A stretch of DNA of 64,000 bases, taken from an uncultured Spartobacteria bacterium (GTDB lineage Bacteria > Verrucomicrobiota > Verrucomicrobiia > Chthoniobacterales > Chthoniobacteraceae). Location: NCBI GenBank assembly GCA_903933715.1, contig CAIZLD010000029.1:16696-80695 (forward strand), read 5' to 3'. Both the position numbers and the translations under genes were made by a program. The notes under the pieces were generated by a model, which worked only from the letters and a program-made list of their open reading frames with translations, had not been told where the DNA came from and did no database searches. Positions 1 to 46,110 of this stretch are shown piece after piece; within the stretch, counting starts at the first letter, position 1, and each line of letters opens with the position of its first letter.

Positions 1-1812
1 AACGGGCGATTGCAGCGAAATTGGCTGTTGTGCCATTTTGAGCACGGCGCGAACGCGTTCGACGGGGAGCTGAATTTCCTCGGCGACCTCTTCCGGATTC
101 GGCTCGCGCCCGTATTCCTGTACGAGTTGCTTCTGGACGCGCATCAGCTTGTTGATCGTCTCGATCATGTGGACCGGGATGCGGATCGTGCGGGCTTGGT
201 CGGCAATGGAGCGGGTGATCGCCTGCCGAATCCACCAAGTGGCGTAGGTGGAGAATTTGTAGCCGCGGCGGTATTCAAATTTCTCGACCGCCTTCATGAG
301 CCCCATGTTGCCTTCCTGGATCAAGTCGAGGAACGAGAGGCCGCGGTTGGTGTATTTTTTGGCAATGGAGATGACCAGGCGCAGGTTGGCTTCGACCATT
401 TCGGTCTTCGCCTTGAGCGCTTTGCGCAGCCATGATTTGAGCGTCCGGTATTCGGTCGCAAACTCGTCGGGAGACAGCCAGGTGCGGGTCTGGATTTCCT
501 TCTGCTTGGCGATATAGGCGGCGGCCGCGTCCGGTTTGCCGGACTGGGCGCGCTTGGCGATCTCGTCCCGGAGGAAGGAAGCGGTGCGGTATTGCTCGTC
601 CGCGATGTTGACAAATTCCTCGGTCACTTTCTGCTTGAAGTAGAACTTCGGATAGAACTTCTGGAGCGCGGCATGGGCTTTCGCAAATTCCTGGTGAGCC
701 TTGGTGCTGGCGCTCTTGGAATTCTGGGTCATCACGACCTTGTAGGTGCGGGCGGCTTCCGTGGCGGCTTTCTCGACCTGTTCGCACAGCTTCGGCAGCG
801 CCTTCATGTAACGCTCGCGGCTTTCGATTTTTTTGTCGAGGATGACGCGATCAAACCGCTCCCGGCCTTCGTTGAGTTTGTTGGCGAGGTCGAGGTAAGC
901 GCGGGCGATGAACCCGAAATGGTTGACGAATTTTTGGACGTTGAGTTCGGCTTCCTCGATGCGCTTGGAGATTTCGACTTCCTGCTCGCGGGTGAGGAGG
1001 GGGACCTGCCCCATTTGCTTGAGATACATCCGGACGGGGTCGTCCAGAATGTCGAGCTTCGCGTCGGCCTTGTCTTCTTCTTCCTCTTCCTCGGAATCTT
1101 TTTTGCCGTCCTTGTAACTGTCAACCTGGGAGGCATCGATGATATCGATCTCCATCCCGCGCAAACGGTTGAGGATCGCTTCCATCTCGTCAGGCTCGTT
1201 GACGCTGTCAGGCAGTGACTCATTAAGATCGTCAAAGGTGAGATAGCCTTGTTCCTTGGCGAGCTTGATGAGCTCACGAAGTTTTTCCGCCATTTCCGGC
1301 GCATCGACATTAAAGGGAACAGGAGCTTCCACCGGAGCAGCGACTTTACTGCTTTTTTCGGCTTTGGCAGGTGCAGCTTTGGCAGGTGCGGCTTTGGCTG
1401 GCGCGGCTTTGGCTGGCGCGGCTTTGGCTGGCGCGGCTTTGGCAGGTGCAGCTTTGACAGGTGCAGCTTTGGCAGGTGCGGCTTTGGCTGGCGCGGCTGC
1501 TTTAGCCGGAGCAGGTTTCGCGGGGGCCGCTTTAACCGGAACGGCTTTGACTGCGGTTTTGTGCTTGGGAGCGGGGGTTTTTGAAGCCGGTTTCGCAGCT
1601 TTTTTTGCAACCGGTTTTGGAGCCGGTTTGGAGGTCGCTTTAGTGGCCGGTTTGGCCTTATGCACCACACTCTTTGCGGTTACAGCTTTGGCGGCAGCTT
1701 TTGCCACCGGTTTTTTGCTCGGAATCGGAGCCGCTTTTTTAGCAGGCTTGGCGGCTGGGGCGGGAGTGCGTTTAGAAGCGGGAGAAGCAGTTTTCTTGGT
1801 CGATTTGGACAT
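1..1812 (-). CDS. rpoD: RNA polymerase housekeeping sigma-70, 3'-truncated by the window edge, with a K/A/P-rich N-terminal extension
   Basis: Absent from the ORF track because it runs off the window. The reverse-complement frame from ATG 1812..1810 is stop-free to nt 1. It contains region 1.1 ([23 protein letters not shown]), region 2 ([76 protein letters not shown]) and region 3 ([21 protein letters not shown]). An alternative in-frame ATG lies at 1293. Confidence 0.9.
1361..1495 (-). repeat. Nine head-to-tail 15-bp tandem repeats (GCTTTGGCWGGYGCR on the + strand) encoding (AKAAP)n inside the rpoD 5' region
   Basis: Direct reading of lines 1321-1500. The units start at 1361, 1376, 1391, 1406, 1421, 1436, 1451, 1466 and 1481, in frame with rpoD. 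Confidence 0.85.
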
Positions 1813-21181: not shown

Positions 21182-22135
21182 TTACTCGGCTTCCTTAGCC
21201 CCTTCGGAGAGCACCTCGGATTGCGCGGCGCACAGGCAGCCGCCAAAAATAATCAGCGAACCCGAAAGATAAATCCACATCAGGACCGCCACCACGCTGC
21301 TAAGAGTCCCGTAAAGAATGTTGAATTTTGCGAAATTTACCGCGTAAAAGATGAACCCTTCCTTCAAAAGCAACAGAAACACCGTCGCGAGCGCAGCCGA
21401 AATCCAAACCTCCCTCACCAGGGTCTTTCGACGGGGCGCGTATTTGTAGAACATCAGCAACCCGAAAAAGAGGATCAGCGGAGGAAGAACCCTGGGCGCT
21501 ATTCGTAGGGAATATTCCATCAATTCATAACCAACCACGCCCGAGGAACGCCAATAACGCTCAATCGCTGTCATGATCACTGGGGCAACGACCCCCAATA
21601 GAAGGGTGGATGCCAAAATAGCCATCATACCAAGGTTGGCGATCGGTAATCGCCACCACGAATATTCTTTGGTTCCCCAAGCGCGGTTTACGCCATGCAC
21701 CAAGGCTTGAAAAAAACGCAACCCGCTCCAAAGGAGGGCCAGGATGGCGATGAATCCAGCTTGGGTTCGCCCATTGAGCGCGCCCGTGACCGTCGATTGC
21801 ACGATGTTTTGCTCGTTAGGACTAACTGGAAAATACGTATTAAAAAATGCAAGCACCTGACTGGCTACCGCCTGCTTATCCCCCCAAATCATCGTACCCA
21901 GGGTTATAAACAACAGCAGCAGCGGAAACAGGGCAAAGAAGGCATAGTAAGCGAACGACGCGGCCCGCAGTTCTCCGTCGATTTCCAAATACTTGTAAAT
22001 CATCCGGACCAGGATTTTCCAAACAAGACGGAAAAAGGCCGTTATTTTTGCCGCCGCTTTTGCCCAAAAAGCCTCAAAATTCATTTCACGGCAATCATAA
22101 GCGTTTTTTTTGAGTCCTGACCAGTGGATTTCCAA
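21182..22135 (-). CDS. YihY/BrkB family inner-membrane protein
   Basis: 317 aa with about six TM segments. AASFAYYAFFALFPLLLL and YGTLSSVVAVLMWIYLSGSLIIFG are typical of YihY/virulence factor BrkB. Confidence 0.8.
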   Translation of the reverse strand: MEIHWSGLKKNAYDCREMNFEAFWAKAAAKITAFFRLVWKILVRMIYKYLEIDGELRAASFAYYAFFALFPLLLLFITLGTMIWGDKQAVASQVLAFFNTYFPVSPNEQNIVQSTVTGALNGRTQAGFIAILALLWSGLRFFQALVHGVNRAWGTKEYSWWRLPIANLGMMAILASTLLLGVVAPVIMTAIERYWRSSGVVGYELMEYSLRIAPRVLPPLILFFGLLMFYKYAPRRKTLVREVWISAALATVFLLLLKEGFIFYAVNFAKFNILYGTLSSVVAVLMWIYLSGSLIIFGGCLCAAQSEVLSEGAKEAE

Positions 22136-22163: not shown

Positions 22164-22913
22164 TTATATTTTCAGAGAACGATAAGTTATTTTGGATGGG
22201 GCGTGCCGATCCAGCAGCACCGCTTCGACCGCTCCCTGCTTGAGTTGCTCCTCGCGGTGAGCGGAGATCGTTTCAGCAGACGGAACCCCGTCTTCCTCGC
22301 GAGTCAACGTCAGATGCCCCACTGTCCAGGCATCCAATCCCACGTTCAGCCTCTCGTCCTGGGATAATCCTGAAATCTTAGTTTTACGTAAAAACTCGCT
22401 CATCATGCTTGCGGAGTGATGCTTGCCGGAAATCACCGCAAACGGCTCCGGGGCGTTTGAGAGCGCCCCTCCATTGGTATGGTAGGAGCCATCGTAATCC
22501 AGAGTCAGCAGCAGATCAGGCTCCCCATTGCGCCCGAGTTCCGCAAAAAGCATTCGCGCCAGATACGGCGGACCGTAGATTTGCTCGAACGCATTCTTCA
22601 GGAGCGGGCTCATGGAATACGAGACCAAACGCCGCAGTGAAACGTCTTGGGCCGACCGGGTAAACCCTTCCGCTCCAGCGACTTCGATCCCCGTCATGCG
22701 AAGCCGCTCAATATCCCCGGGGTGCCCGATGGCTCCCATCGCGATGCGGTCATAAATCTCGAAAAGCTTCTGGCGTTCGCGGCTCACCGTGACCAAAAGG
22801 ATCCCGTCCGCGCCACTTAAAGCAACAATGGGGCTTCCGGCGGCGAGTTGATTTTCAATGTATTCGCGGCGGTTTTGGATGGCCTCGACCCAGCGGTACG
22901 GTTCTTCAATCAT
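22164..22913 (-). CDS. prcA: 20S proteasome alpha-type subunit (bacterial PrcA-like)
   Basis: Collinear similarity to mycobacterial PrcA as I remember it: IYDRIAMGAIGHPGDIERLRMTGIEVA..RSAQDVSLRRL ... LTLDYDGS (cf. [27 protein letters not shown] ... RITYDGS). ATGA start/stop overlap with prcB. Confidence 0.8.
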   Translation of the reverse strand: MIEEPYRWVEAIQNRREYIENQLAAGSPIVALSGADGILLVTVSRERQKLFEIYDRIAMGAIGHPGDIERLRMTGIEVAGAEGFTRSAQDVSLRRLVSYSMSPLLKNAFEQIYGPPYLARMLFAELGRNGEPDLLLTLDYDGSYHTNGGALSNAPEPFAVISGKHHSASMMSEFLRKTKISGLSQDERLNVGLDAWTVGHLTLTREEDGVPSAETISAHREEQLKQGAVEAVLLDRHAPSKITYRSLKI

Positions 22914-23737
22914 GGGGTTGGTTGGTTTTTAGCGTTTTGCAGATCACGTTGGTATGCTTTGATCAGGACGGCGTCGGGAAGGGTCGTGATCCCTTTCGAA
23001 TTGACGATCTTCACCAGCGGATAGACCCGTCCGTGGCGGTCCACTGCCCCGGTTGCGGTATCGTTTTGCGCCGCCGTATCGAGCGCCCGTAACGCCAGCA
23101 GAACGGCCTCTTCTTCGTTCATTTTGAGCATCGGACGCGATCCATAGGCGTTCGCGTATTGCAGCACCGCCCGGACCGAAGGGGAACCGGAGCCGGATGC
23201 CGCAAAATCGGCGACCTCGAACTGCGCCCCCATCACATCATAAAAATAGAGCCGCGAAAGATCGGCTGCGGGATCGTAGGCGGCAAAAATCGGGACCACC
23301 ACCCCGACCCCCTGCAACGCCATGCCGATGTTATCGCGCAGCAGCTTGGAAAGCGCCCGGACCTTGCCCTCCATGCTCATCTCCTGGAGTTGGCTGCGCC
23401 GGTAAAATTGGAACGAATGCTCCAGCATCCGCGCCATTTCCCAGGCGGTCGCGGGCACCCCGGCGATCGCCATCAGTGAAAAGCGGTCAATTTCAAGCAC
23501 CTTATCGGCCCGGTCGTAAATCACCAGATTCCCGGAGGTCGCCCGGCGATCGCCCGCCATGAGGACGCCCCCGGCAAACTTGAACGCCAGAATGGTCGTC
23601 GCCATTGTTTGGCACCCTTCCGGCAACGGCCCGCCGCGTGGGGCATGGACTGGCGGCGGTTCGGGCAAAATCCCGTTGCGGCGCAACAAAGTGGGGAAAT
23701 CGGGCACCCCCGAGTCCGTCATGGGAGATGGTTCCAT
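22910..23737 (-). CDS. prcB: 20S proteasome beta subunit with propeptide and catalytic Thr (PrcB-like)
   Basis: TTILAFKFAGGVLMAGDRRATSGNLV closely parallels Mtb PrcB [26 protein letters not shown]. An approximately 46-aa propeptide precedes the Thr. GSGS motif further downstream. Confidence 0.9.
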   Translation of the reverse strand: MEPSPMTDSGVPDFPTLLRRNGILPEPPPVHAPRGGPLPEGCQTMATTILAFKFAGGVLMAGDRRATSGNLVIYDRADKVLEIDRFSLMAIAGVPATAWEMARMLEHSFQFYRRSQLQEMSMEGKVRALSKLLRDNIGMALQGVGVVVPIFAAYDPAADLSRLYFYDVMGAQFEVADFAASGSGSPSVRAVLQYANAYGSRPMLKMNEEEAVLLALRALDTAAQNDTATGAVDRHGRVYPLVKIVNSKGITTLPDAVLIKAYQRDLQNAKNQPTP

Positions 23738-23740
23738 AAA

Positions 23741-23917
23741 TTATTGGCCGGTGCGCTGGCGGTAACGTTTGGATTGCTCCGGGTCCACCCGGCGCATCCT
23801 CTTGATTAAATCCTTTGTATCGGGTTTCGAGATGTCAGGGGAACGGGGTCCGTCTGAATCTCCCTGTTTGGGCCCCCAAGGTGCGGGAGCCACCGGCCGC
23901 TGGGTTCTCTCTGGCAT
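23741..23917 (-). CDS. UBact-like prokaryotic ubiquitin-like tag (Pup homologue), C-terminal RTGQ
   Basis: 58 aa from ATG 23917 (the tracked ORF extends to a GTG at 23965, which would overlap the divergent LysM gene region). MPERTQRPVAPAPWGPKQGDSDGPRSPDISKPDTKDLIKRMRRVDPEQSKRYRQRTGQ. Small, disordered-looking, ends in R-T-G-Q, with its stop 3 nt before prcB. Confidence 0.7.
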   Translation of the reverse strand: MPERTQRPVAPAPWGPKQGDSDGPRSPDISKPDTKDLIKRMRRVDPEQSKRYRQRTGQ

Positions 23918-23991
23918 AAAATCAGGATCGGTTATAAAAGTGTGCATTGCAGGGCTTGCCTTCACTGGATCGGCATGAGAAAAGTAGAGCC

Positions 23992-24609
23992 ATGCACCGT
24001 TGGTTTCGTTTCTGCGCCTTGATCGCGCTTATGGCTTTTTCGCAAGGTGGCCTCGCCCAAACCCCTTCGGAAGAAACCTCCACCGCCCCCATTCCCAAGC
24101 ACCGGATCAAGGCTTCGCCTTCCGATCTCGTCCAGTTCCATATGGAGGCGCAGGGGAAGAAAATCGACGAATTGAAAGCGCAGCTCGAAGCGCAGGCCCA
24201 GCTCATCCGCGCCCAGACCAAGCTGCTCGAAGAAATCGGCCAGCGTAGCGAGCTTCAGACCAAGCAGATCGAGACCCTCAATGGCGACCTGAACCGGCTC
24301 AACGCCAACCTGCTCTCACGCAACAGCGAACCGGCACCGGGCTCCACCCCCGTCCATACGGCCGAACCGGTGGTCGTTACCCCGACCTCCCCCGTGGCGA
24401 ACCCGGCCGGTCCCGCAACCCCGGCGATCACGCCGGGAGCCCCGACCCATGTGGTCAAACAAGGCGAGACACTGATCTCCATCGCCCGGCAACACGGCCT
24501 CACCGTTTCCGAACTGCTTAAAGTCAACAAGATCGAGGACGAGCGCAAATTGCAGATCGGCCAGACCTTACTTCTCCCCCCACCCCCCAAAAAAACTGAC
24601 AGCCAATAG
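23992..24609 (+). CDS. Secreted coiled-coil protein with a C-terminal LysM domain
   Basis: Start trimmed to ATG 23992 (MHRWFRFCALIALMAFSQGGLAQ signal peptide). Coiled-coil-like EELKAQLEAQAQLIRAQTKLLEE, then LysM (HVVKQGETLISIARQHGLTVSELLKVNKIEDERKLQIGQTLLLP). Confidence 0.8.
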   Translation: MHRWFRFCALIALMAFSQGGLAQTPSEETSTAPIPKHRIKASPSDLVQFHMEAQGKKIDELKAQLEAQAQLIRAQTKLLEEIGQRSELQTKQIETLNGDLNRLNANLLSRNSEPAPGSTPVHTAEPVVVTPTSPVANPAGPATPAITPGAPTHVVKQGETLISIARQHGLTVSELLKVNKIEDERKLQIGQTLLLPPPPKKTDSQ

Positions 24610-41489: not shown

Positions 41490-43082
41490 TTACGGCTCGA
41501 TCCCTGCCGGGCGAAGAAAAACCCGGAACGCCGCGTTGGAATAGGCAAGCTCCAAAAATGGCGGCGCGCTATGCGGTCGCCGATACAAATATTCCCCCAT
41601 CGTCCCCTCGCCCGCCGGTTGGCTTAAAATGGCGCTTGCAACGGCATTGACGCGGTCCGGTTCGTACGCCACCACACACGCCACCCGGCGACGCGCCAGG
41701 ATCGCTTCGGCCTCGGCGGGATCGGCGCTCAGGTAAAAGCGGGAACTGTCCACAGTTCCGGGAAGGCTCTCGTGGGAACTCCCGGCCACGCATGGCTGGC
41801 CCGACCAGTAGGCCAGCGCCGGGGATTGCCACCACGGAGCGAGAATCGGCAACCGGCGCGCCCCCTTCAACTGCTGCGCTACATCAAAAAGTGCGAGCTG
41901 ATCGAGACGTTTTTCGGCCCGGAATCCAATCTGGACGGGCGTGTTTTGCTGTTTCCAGTTCAACCCGACAGGCCACAGCGCAATGAGAAACACTACCATG
42001 GCAAGCCGGGGCCGGGTGAAAATCGATAACAAGGACGGAATTGCCATCGTAAGGGCCAAGCCGAGGAAGTAACCCCAGCGCGCCTGCCACCACGTCAGCG
42101 GGATTAAAACGGCGATCAGCCCCAGCCAAAACCGGGCGGCCGCATCGCGTTGCCTCCAGCCCCGCCAGTACAACGCCGGGAGGAGCAACAGAATGCCGCC
42201 CATCCATTGAAATAGCGTGACTAGAGGAACATGGGCAAGTTCGCCGATCGTCCGGCTCCAATTCGCAAACTTGTCGCGCACCCCTGGGTCCGGCATTGCC
42301 AGAAGCCGCCCCCCTTCCACGGTGAAGGCCAGCAACCCCACGGCAATTAATGGCAGCCAGAAGCAAAGCCGCTCTCTATTAGAGAGCTTCGTTTTTACCA
42401 TCAGCCCACAAATCACCGCGACTCCCCCAAGCACCAGCGGTTCATAGAGGGAAACCCAGATTCCCAGTCCCCAAACGAACCCGCCGATCAGAGCCCAATG
42501 ACGCGTCGGTTGGGTCAGGAGCGCCATCTCTGCCCCCAAAGCCGCCGCCATGCAGAGCATTAAGAGCGATTGATGATCAGGCCGACCCAAGACCGTCCCC
42601 TGAACCAGAATGGGGTTCACGGCAAAAAAAACCAGCATCGCGACCCGGTAAGACAACTCAATTCGTCCGCTCCAAACCCAGAGAAATGCCGCCGTAAGAA
42701 GTCCCAGTAAAGGGGAAATCCAGGCTCCGGCAGCATCCAAGGCAGTCTGGGAAGAGATACCGCTCGCCCGGATCGCCGCCGCCAACCCGGCCGTCAGGTA
42801 ATCAAACGGGGCCGTCGTATGAGGCCGGACTCCCTCGGGCCAATTCTCGAACAAATGTTCGTGAATCACCCGGCCGGGGTGTTCCAGCACTGATTGCACC
42901 CGGGTCATTCGGGAATAACAATCCGGGTCCACAAAGAAGGTCCGCCCCGCCACAAACACATCGGCCGCATTCCAGCAACGCACCAGCACGACCAAAGCCA
43001 GCAGGCCAGGGAGGAGGAAATTCTTCAGAGAGCGGGGAGACATCACGCCGTCACCTTCCCAGAAGTGAAACCATCTGTCCAC
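41490..43082 (-). CDS. Polytopic membrane protein, GT-C-fold glycosyltransferase-like (STT3/ArnT-type)
   Basis: About 13 predicted TM helices. The first extracytoplasmic loop FVDPDCYSRMTRV resembles the acidic DxD/DPD loop of GT-C enzymes. GTG start at 43082, alternative ATG at 43043. The family call is tentative. Confidence 0.5.
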   Translation of the reverse strand: MDRWFHFWEGDGVMSPRSLKNFLLPGLLALVVLVRCWNAADVFVAGRTFFVDPDCYSRMTRVQSVLEHPGRVIHEHLFENWPEGVRPHTTAPFDYLTAGLAAAIRASGISSQTALDAAGAWISPLLGLLTAAFLWVWSGRIELSYRVAMLVFFAVNPILVQGTVLGRPDHQSLLMLCMAAALGAEMALLTQPTRHWALIGGFVWGLGIWVSLYEPLVLGGVAVICGLMVKTKLSNRERLCFWLPLIAVGLLAFTVEGGRLLAMPDPGVRDKFANWSRTIGELAHVPLVTLFQWMGGILLLLPALYWRGWRQRDAAARFWLGLIAVLIPLTWWQARWGYFLGLALTMAIPSLLSIFTRPRLAMVVFLIALWPVGLNWKQQNTPVQIGFRAEKRLDQLALFDVAQQLKGARRLPILAPWWQSPALAYWSGQPCVAGSSHESLPGTVDSSRFYLSADPAEAEAILARRRVACVVAYEPDRVNAVASAILSQPAGEGTMGEYLYRRPHSAPPFLELAYSNAAFRVFLRPAGIEP

Positions 43083-43327: not shown

Positions 43328-45985
<2,658 letters not shown>

Positions 45986-46028
45986 AAATCTCGCGCAAAC
46001 CACCGCAGCGAATGAAAGACAGGAATAG

Positions 46029-46110
46029 CTCACGCAAAGACGCAAAGACGCAAAGGGATAGGATTTCAAATTCCTCTGCCTTTCTTTGCGCCTTTGCGTC
46101 TTTGCGTGAG
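46029..46110. repeat. GCAAAG-family 27-bp inverted repeat pair between gyrB and gyrA
   Basis: CTCACGCAAAGACGCAAAGACGCAAAG (46029-46055) and CTTTGCGCCTTTGCGTCTTTGCGTGAG (46084-46110). The arms are reverse complements with one mismatch. Confidence 0.85.

Follow-up and report, generated by a model that had tools for sequence, protein, structure and literature searches.

UBact is the analogue, in several non-actinobacterial lineages, of the protein tag Pup, and the Verrucomicrobia are reportedly among the phyla listed for it when it was first reported. That first report dates from 2017 (Lehmann, Udasin, Livneh, and Ciechanover, BBRC 483:946, as cited in PMC5751360). The actinobacterial Pup system comprises, in Mycobacterium tuberculosis, the genes mpa, dop, pup, prcB, prcA, and pafA. 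The order of pupylation genes has been called 'rigidly conserved', with dop before pup (PMC3511204), and pup has been described as 'invariably' adjacent to a gene of the PafA family (PMC2588565). Here, we analyzed a 64-kb stretch of contig CAIZLD010000029.1 (hereafter the window, meaning this whole stretch) from an uncultured freshwater member of the Chthoniobacteraceae (Verrucomicrobiota), in which a UBact gene directly precedes prcB and prcA, the genes for the beta and alpha subunits of a 20S proteasome. None of the genes for the partner enzymes PafA, Dop, and Mpa lies nearby. Our analysis suggests that the locus is probably the tag-protease module of a dispersed UBact-proteasome system, whose partner enzymes are encoded elsewhere in the genome.

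The UBact-prcB-prcA operon

The three genes are co-directional on the minus strand and span 22164-23917. Their positions in the window, and that of a possible extension of the tag gene, are as follows.

23741..23917, minus strand: UBact tag gene, 58 amino acids (aa; MPERTQRPVAPAPWGPKQGDSDGPRSPDISKPDTKDLIKRMRRVDPEQSKRYRQRTGQ) followed by a TAA stop, with matches to PF20513 and NF033388
22910..23737, minus strand: prcB, 20S proteasome beta subunit, 275 aa with a 46-aa propeptide, PF00227
22164..22913, minus strand: prcA, 20S proteasome alpha subunit, 249 aa, overlapping prcB as ATGA, PF00227
23918..23965, minus strand: in-frame extension of the tag gene to a GTG, which would give 74 aa; probably non-coding

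The open reading frame (ORF) of the tag starts with the ATG at 23917 (MPERTQ...) and ends in ...KRYRQRTGQ before a TAA stop at 23741-23743, in line with the UBact terminus R-[T/S]-G-[E/Q] followed by a stop codon. With 58 aa and a gap of 3 nucleotides (nt), it is also a small protein (about 50-70 aa) directly upstream of prcB-prcA. The ORF scored 76.9-77.8 bits against PF20513, the Pfam model of UBact (gathering cut-off of 27.8), and 83.4 bits against NF033388, the NCBIfam equivalog 'ubiquitin-like protein UBact' (cut-off of 35), that is, two to three times the cut-offs. The 58-aa tag did not match the Pup model (PF05639) even at E ≤ 10, with UBact alone being reported, and the Pup-type GG[Q/E] terminus is not present, the window tag ending in Thr-Gly-Gln. 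We assign the tag to UBact and not to Pup, as the first-pass annotation of this DNA had proposed for a 58-aa product with this C-terminus. The same annotation had placed the end of the locus at 23965, corresponding to the GTG and a 74-aa product, and this did not hold. Since the Chthoniobacterales relatives share the Met of MPERTQ, the start is placed at the ATG at 23917; the sequence upstream of this Met is unconserved, and the extension is probably non-coding.

PrcB was used to fetch 58 related loci (here and below, loci are numbered with the prefix L). In 52 of these 58, the ORF immediately preceding prcB has the same C-terminus, and the length, start, and C-terminus are kept across several phyla. 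The 39 copies from Chthoniobacterales that share the length of exactly 58 aa all begin with MPE. Among these same-length copies, the mean proportion of synonymous differences (pS) was 0.67 per site and that of nonsynonymous differences (pN) 0.15, and the median ratio of nonsynonymous to synonymous substitution rates (dN/dS) over 522 pairs was 0.087, indicating strong purifying selection with near-saturated synonymous sites. The constraint covers the whole tag, including the terminal RTG[Q/E]. Most close relatives also couple the tag stop to the prcB start, at spacings of -4 to +3 nt. Given the scores against curated models, the conservation, the low dN/dS, and this coupling, we regard the UBact ORF as a translated and selected gene. 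Even near-identical relatives can differ in the last residue, which is Gln in 36 copies and Glu in 22 overall, and Gln in 30 and Glu in 10 within Chthoniobacterales. This alternation resembles that of PupQ and PupE and fits a retained deamidase.

The packing of the operon is tight, as the first-pass annotation had noted. The TAA of UBact is followed by ttt and then by the prcB ATG at 23737, and the TGA of prcB and the ATG of prcA overlap as ATGA at 22910-22913. PrcB scored 97 bits against PF00227 and PrcA 32.2 bits (cut-off of 22.4). Among solved structures, PrcB is closest to Rhodococcus beta1 (114 bits), followed by M. tuberculosis PrcB (97 bits), and PrcA is closest to M. tuberculosis PrcA (52.8 bits), so that the earlier identification of the two as 20S beta and alpha subunits was upheld. 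The propeptide and catalytic TTILAF threonine that had been claimed for PrcB were likewise found: a 46-residue propeptide precedes T47-TILAF, with the codon of the catalytic Thr47 at 23597-23599. Thr1, Asp17, and Lys33 are all in place, according to reading of the sequence and alignment to Rhodococcus beta1, and the active site is predicted to be catalytically complete. Public gene calls start PrcB five codons later, at the ATG at 23722, giving 270 aa. Judged from their sequences, the three genes of the operon are genuine and uninterrupted, their translation is coupled, and purifying selection acts on them.

Gly is the usual residue before Thr1 at the autoprocessing site of beta subunits. In the window PrcB, residue -1 is Ala (QTMA|TTILAF, 23597-23602), likewise in most Chthoniobacterales, with Gly in L008 and L042 and Ser in L013.

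Partner enzymes and locus layouts

The first-pass annotation had reported no ligase, deamidase, or ATPase gene within about 20 kb of the operon, and this absence was found to extend further. A Pfam scan of 50 window ORFs detected no PF03136 and no proteasomal AAA domain, and when 48 PafA, Dop, and Mpa proteins were compared with the entire window by tblastn, no match was better than E = 0.009. On the parent contig, neither Pup_ligase nor a proteasomal AAA is listed among the genes and Pfam domains up to ~8 kb past either window edge. Because the searches of the window and of the contig edges were negative, the distance from the operon to any PafA, Dop, or Mpa gene must be no less than 30 kb in one direction and no less than 48 kb in the other. 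The clustering of UBact with Dop, PafA, and Mpa homologues is thus absent from the window and from the ~8 kb beyond. Such clustering is a trait of the canonical locus and not of the UBact protein family, and it is missing across Chthoniobacterales.

We surveyed the layout by tblastn over all related loci, with up to 10 kb of DNA per side. The 12 complete loci from outside Chthoniobacterales all showed the contiguous order Mpa-Dop-UBact-PrcB-PrcA-PafA. They came from Latescibacterota, Poribacteria, Nitrospinaceae, Gemmatimonadota, and one non-Chthoniobacterales metagenome-assembled genome (MAG) of Verrucomicrobiota, and four truncated contigs were compatible with the same six-gene layout. Of the Chthoniobacterales loci, seven lacked Dop and Mpa and had a PafA-type gene at 1-6 kb upstream, separated from the operon by unrelated genes. 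Approximately 33 had no partner gene within the span searched; they include the window itself, the loci closest to it, and the closed genome CP170506.1 (5.6 Mb). In total, approximately 40 Chthoniobacterales loci lacked Mpa or Dop beside the operon. The split layout is therefore an order-wide trait of Chthoniobacterales and no peculiarity of the window. The first-pass annotation had contrasted the window with canonical loci, which keep the partner genes adjacent. The adjacency was seen in 12 of 12 complete loci of other lineages, and the partner genes are indeed absent from this neighborhood; the weight placed on that absence should be reduced, since the split layout is the rule in Chthoniobacterales, with orthologues at separate loci.

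In Fimbriimonadales (Armatimonadota), three loci (L054:4400-5710, L055:3750-5056, and L057:10001-11292) have prcB-prcA with no recognizable UBact, PafA, Dop, or Mpa in the DNA searched. Two of them, L054 and L057, have a sequence that translates like a tRNA gene just upstream of prcB-prcA. A fourth locus, L056, has Dop-UBact(...RSGQ)-PrcB.

Orthologues of the partner enzymes are common at other loci of the order. A PafA-type query from Chthoniobacterales and Dop queries returned hundreds of close homologues, and several of these, from Chthoniobacteraceae or Chthoniobacter MAGs, are named Dop or Pup amidohydrolase by NCBI. The Dop proteins P0196 and P0245 passed the NCBIfam Dop equivalog with 496 and 505 bits (cut-off of 492). 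A distance tree parted the Dop clade cleanly from the PafA clade, and Chthoniobacterales sequences fell in both, one of each. Two-gene Mpa-Dop loci with no proteasome or tag gene were found (L060, L062/L063, L064/L065, L068, and L069), together with loci of Dop alone (L070-L072) and of PafA alone (L077-L086). The last have genes for a tRNA-synthetase-like protein and shikimate dehydrogenase on one side and for NAPRTase on the other. Furthermore, the contig CAVXLY010000007.1 of a relative (1,420,384 bp) carries all six genes on one strand, with Mpa-Dop at ~1.282-1.285 Mb, PafA at ~1.201-1.203 Mb, and UBact-PrcB-PrcA at ~1.195-1.197 Mb. The gap from Dop to the tag is thus ~85 kb. On this contig (L068:4158-5886), the Mpa beside Dop was called in two pieces of 431 and 140 aa, which may come from a frameshift error of the long-read assembly or from a genuine break in the gene.

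Because the split layout is order-wide and orthologues occur at separate loci in Chthoniobacterales, the missing neighbors point to gene dispersal and not to a system devoid of its enzymes. PafA, Dop, and Mpa are most likely located elsewhere in this genome. In evolutionary terms, an ancestral six-gene cluster Mpa-Dop-UBact-PrcB-PrcA-PafA would have been broken up in Chthoniobacterales, with UBact-PrcB-PrcA kept as a tight operon and with Mpa-Dop (or Dop alone) and PafA at other chromosomal sites. By homology with the actinobacterial Pup system (PMC3511204, PMC2588565), UBact would be synthesized with a C-terminal Gln, which a Dop orthologue would deamidate to Glu. A PafA orthologue, using ATP, would join the side chain of this Glu to substrate lysines, and an Mpa/ARC-type AAA ATPase would bind the tag, unfold the substrate, and feed it into the PrcA/PrcB 20S core. 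Dop might also take the tag off. The dispersed layout leaves this expected mechanism unchanged.

Several observations weigh against a dispersed system of this kind. PafA, Dop, and Mpa of this exact organism were not found on the contig or among the matches listed, which is compatible with both their presence and their absence elsewhere in the genome. The signature of the organism is four sources and 9-12 contigs; none of the best 120 PafA or Dop matches carried it, nor did the members read from ten large Dop clusters, and no PafA or Dop candidate sharing the source pattern of the window came from ERZ1426739, ERR4210593, or ERZ273134xx. The two subunits stayed below the NCBIfam equivalog cut-offs for bacterial 20S proteins, with 172.9 bits for PrcB on TIGR03690 20S_bact_beta (cut-off of 191.9) and 67.8 bits for PrcA on TIGR03691 20S_bact_alpha (cut-off of 139), and we classify them as divergent members of the bacterial 20S type. 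A search of the PDB with the UBact tag matched no solved chain, and literature searches returned passing citations of UBact only and no experimental study. The ATPases differ as well. The tail of actinobacterial Mpa is GQYL. The UBact-linked Mpa/ARC-type ATPases end in ...[S/P/T/G/K]-[V/I]-I, and one in ...PVA, with no penultimate Tyr; this applies to L037, L040, L042-L050, and L053, where Mpa lies ~2-4 kb upstream of prcB, and to L060:8268-9899, L062:8238-9902, L064:8340-10001, and L069:8153-9814. Docking on the 20S alpha ring may therefore differ from the Pup-based model in all UBact lineages.

The strongest alternative is that the lineage has lost PafA, Dop, and Mpa and that the conserved UBact and 20S core work outside canonical conjugation. 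UBact might then be a non-covalent adaptor or an assembly factor, or its attachment and delivery might be the work of other enzymes, a ligase and an unfoldase unrelated to the known ones. Such a loss would account for the lack of partner genes within the ~80 kb of contig examined and for the lack of the organism's signature among the PafA and Dop matches listed, and Fimbriimonadales show that a 20S operon can exist with neither tag nor partner genes nearby. Nevertheless, if there were no ligation chemistry, the strong constraint on the RTG[QE] C-terminus and on the whole tag would be difficult to account for. Dop, Mpa, and PafA moreover occur widely in this order and family, at scattered sites, and the 1.42-Mb contig of the relative carries the full set in dispersed form. 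We consider this loss quite improbable and favor dispersal of the partner genes.

A second alternative is that the supposed tag gene is a random reading frame or else the untranslated prcB leader. It has not been called by any public gene caller for this organism, and there is no obvious Shine-Dalgarno sequence upstream of its ATG. The exact 58-aa UBact was not among ~15 billion predicted public proteins, in which PrcA and PrcB of the same organism were present on 9-10 contigs; public gene callers missed this ORF. A 56-aa UBact bearing PF20513 was called as a gene at locus L067. The missing Shine-Dalgarno sequence is common to all Chthoniobacterales copies of UBact, and a chance ORF would hardly score at two to three times curated cut-offs, show a dN/dS as low as that given above at near-saturated synonymous sites, or keep its length, start, and C-terminus over several phyla. 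We judge this explanation to be effectively refuted by the conservation pattern and give it almost no weight.

Lastly, the window DNA stems from a metagenome assembly, and a chimeric or mis-joined contig could in principle have parted the operon from its true neighbors; this is extremely unlikely, since each window protein occurs on 9-12 public contigs with the same neighbors wherever displayed and the partner-less layout recurs in the ~33 related loci, the closed genome included. The parent contig of the window is 116 kb (116,145 bp), and the assemblies that carry window proteins reach 116, 122, and 158 kb; the exact PrcA protein, for example, is on nine public contigs of up to 157,934 bp. 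As the adjoining genes agree at every public placement displayed, we regard mis-assembly as ruled out.

Surroundings of the operon

The nearest relatives of PrcB are 76-80% identical, and all are MAGs labelled Chthoniobacteraceae, Spartobacteria, or Verrucomicrobiota, many of them derived from lakes. They place the operon in Chthoniobacteraceae, in keeping with the non-actinobacterial context claimed in the first-pass annotation. Flanking genes common to these nearest relatives encode ACT-domain, GYF, and LysM proteins upstream and a YihY/BrkB protein downstream. In the window, the operon is bordered by the following features.

21182..22135, minus strand: YihY/BrkB-family membrane protein, 28 nt downstream of prcA, PF03631 (156 bits), TIGR00765
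23918..23991, no strand: divergent intergenic region, presumed promoter, 74 bp from the UBact ATG to the ATG of the LysM protein (23992, plus strand)
23992-24609, plus strand: divergent LysM protein, 205 aa (public gene call)

The YihY/BrkB gene is possibly co-transcribed with UBact-prcB-prcA. It is a neighbor and not a known component of the UBact-proteasome system, and, outside the window, only the closest relatives (L001-L003, L006, and L010) have it at this site. In sister clades, Amidase_3 (AmiC-like) and PG_binding_1 genes directly follow prcA (L012:11569-13155; L059:11517-13277). Cell-envelope genes thus border the operon in the window (LysM and YihY/BrkB) and in sister clades (Amidase_3 and PG_binding_1), which may represent plain synteny or a functional link. 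A sigma-70 consensus scan found no site in 23918-23991, and in a consensus scan of the operon region for sigma-70 sites and terminators, sites were no commoner than in shuffled sequences.

Rfam and tRNA scans of the window gave no match. Two large window ORFs on the minus strand had no Pfam match, namely 43364-46069 (901 aa) and 41490-43082 (530 aa). The latter had a weak NCBIfam match to an archaeosortase-associated STT3-like oligosaccharyl transferase (29.6 bits; cut-off of 450). At 1-1812 (minus strand), public calls give a protein of 709 aa that lacks a Pfam match, comes directly after dnaG, and extends past the left edge of the window. The longest-ORF scan had split this Pro/Lys-rich low-complexity region into ORFs at 275-787 and 804-1670, which are probably not real genes.

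Comparison with known tag-proteasome systems

The window locus is a clean and intact example of a tag system for which we found no experimental study in the literature and no structure in the PDB. Two practical points follow from its layout and annotation. Searches for pupylation-like systems that rely on gene neighborhood will under-call in lineages with the dispersed layout, and gene callers overlook the tag gene itself for this organism. The layout further hints at separate regulation of the enzymes and of the supply of tag and protease.

The locus most closely resembles the UBact cluster of other lineages. It has the same tag family, with an R-T-G-Q/E terminus, a length of 55-67 aa, and a position immediately upstream of prcB-prcA, and the set of PafA, Dop, and Mpa orthologues is present in Chthoniobacterales. 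The difference is that the tag-protease operon of Chthoniobacterales is detached from Mpa-Dop and from PafA, whereas the six genes are contiguous in the 12 loci sampled elsewhere.

The actinobacterial Pup system shares the logic and the enzyme families. In both systems, the gene just ahead of prcBA encodes a short, disordered tag that ends in Gln or Glu, the paralogues Dop and PafA have the glutamine-synthetase fold, and the ATPase is of the ARC/Mpa AAA type. The 20S subunits of the window are nearest to those of Rhodococcus and Mycobacterium, and polymorphism between Q and E at the terminus occurs in Pup too (PMC3511204). On the other hand, the window tag does not match the Pup model and ends in TGQ instead of GGQ, and the UBact-linked ATPases end in ...V/I-I instead of GQYL. 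Further, Chthoniobacterales break both of the statements on Pup loci quoted at the outset, on gene order and on adjacency to PafA. A gene order called rigidly conserved thus does not hold across one whole verrucomicrobial order.

Partial sets of genes offer another comparison. Pupylation loci with no proteasome genes have been described in some actinobacteria (PMC3511204) and in Plesiocystis and Rhodopirellula (PMC2588565), and the Fimbriimonadales loci L054, L055, and L057 represent the opposite case, with the 20S genes only. Like the window, such sets of tag and enzymes only, or of 20S only, indicate that the modules are separable in evolution. They differ from it in that a module is missing there from the locus or genome, whereas the window keeps its tag beside its protease, with the enzymes encoded, in relatives, elsewhere in the same genome. 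Given that UBact was described in 2017 and has curated Pfam and NCBIfam models, the kind of system is already known, and the novelty of this locus is in its genome organization, which is modest and clade-wide, and not in its components or predicted chemistry.

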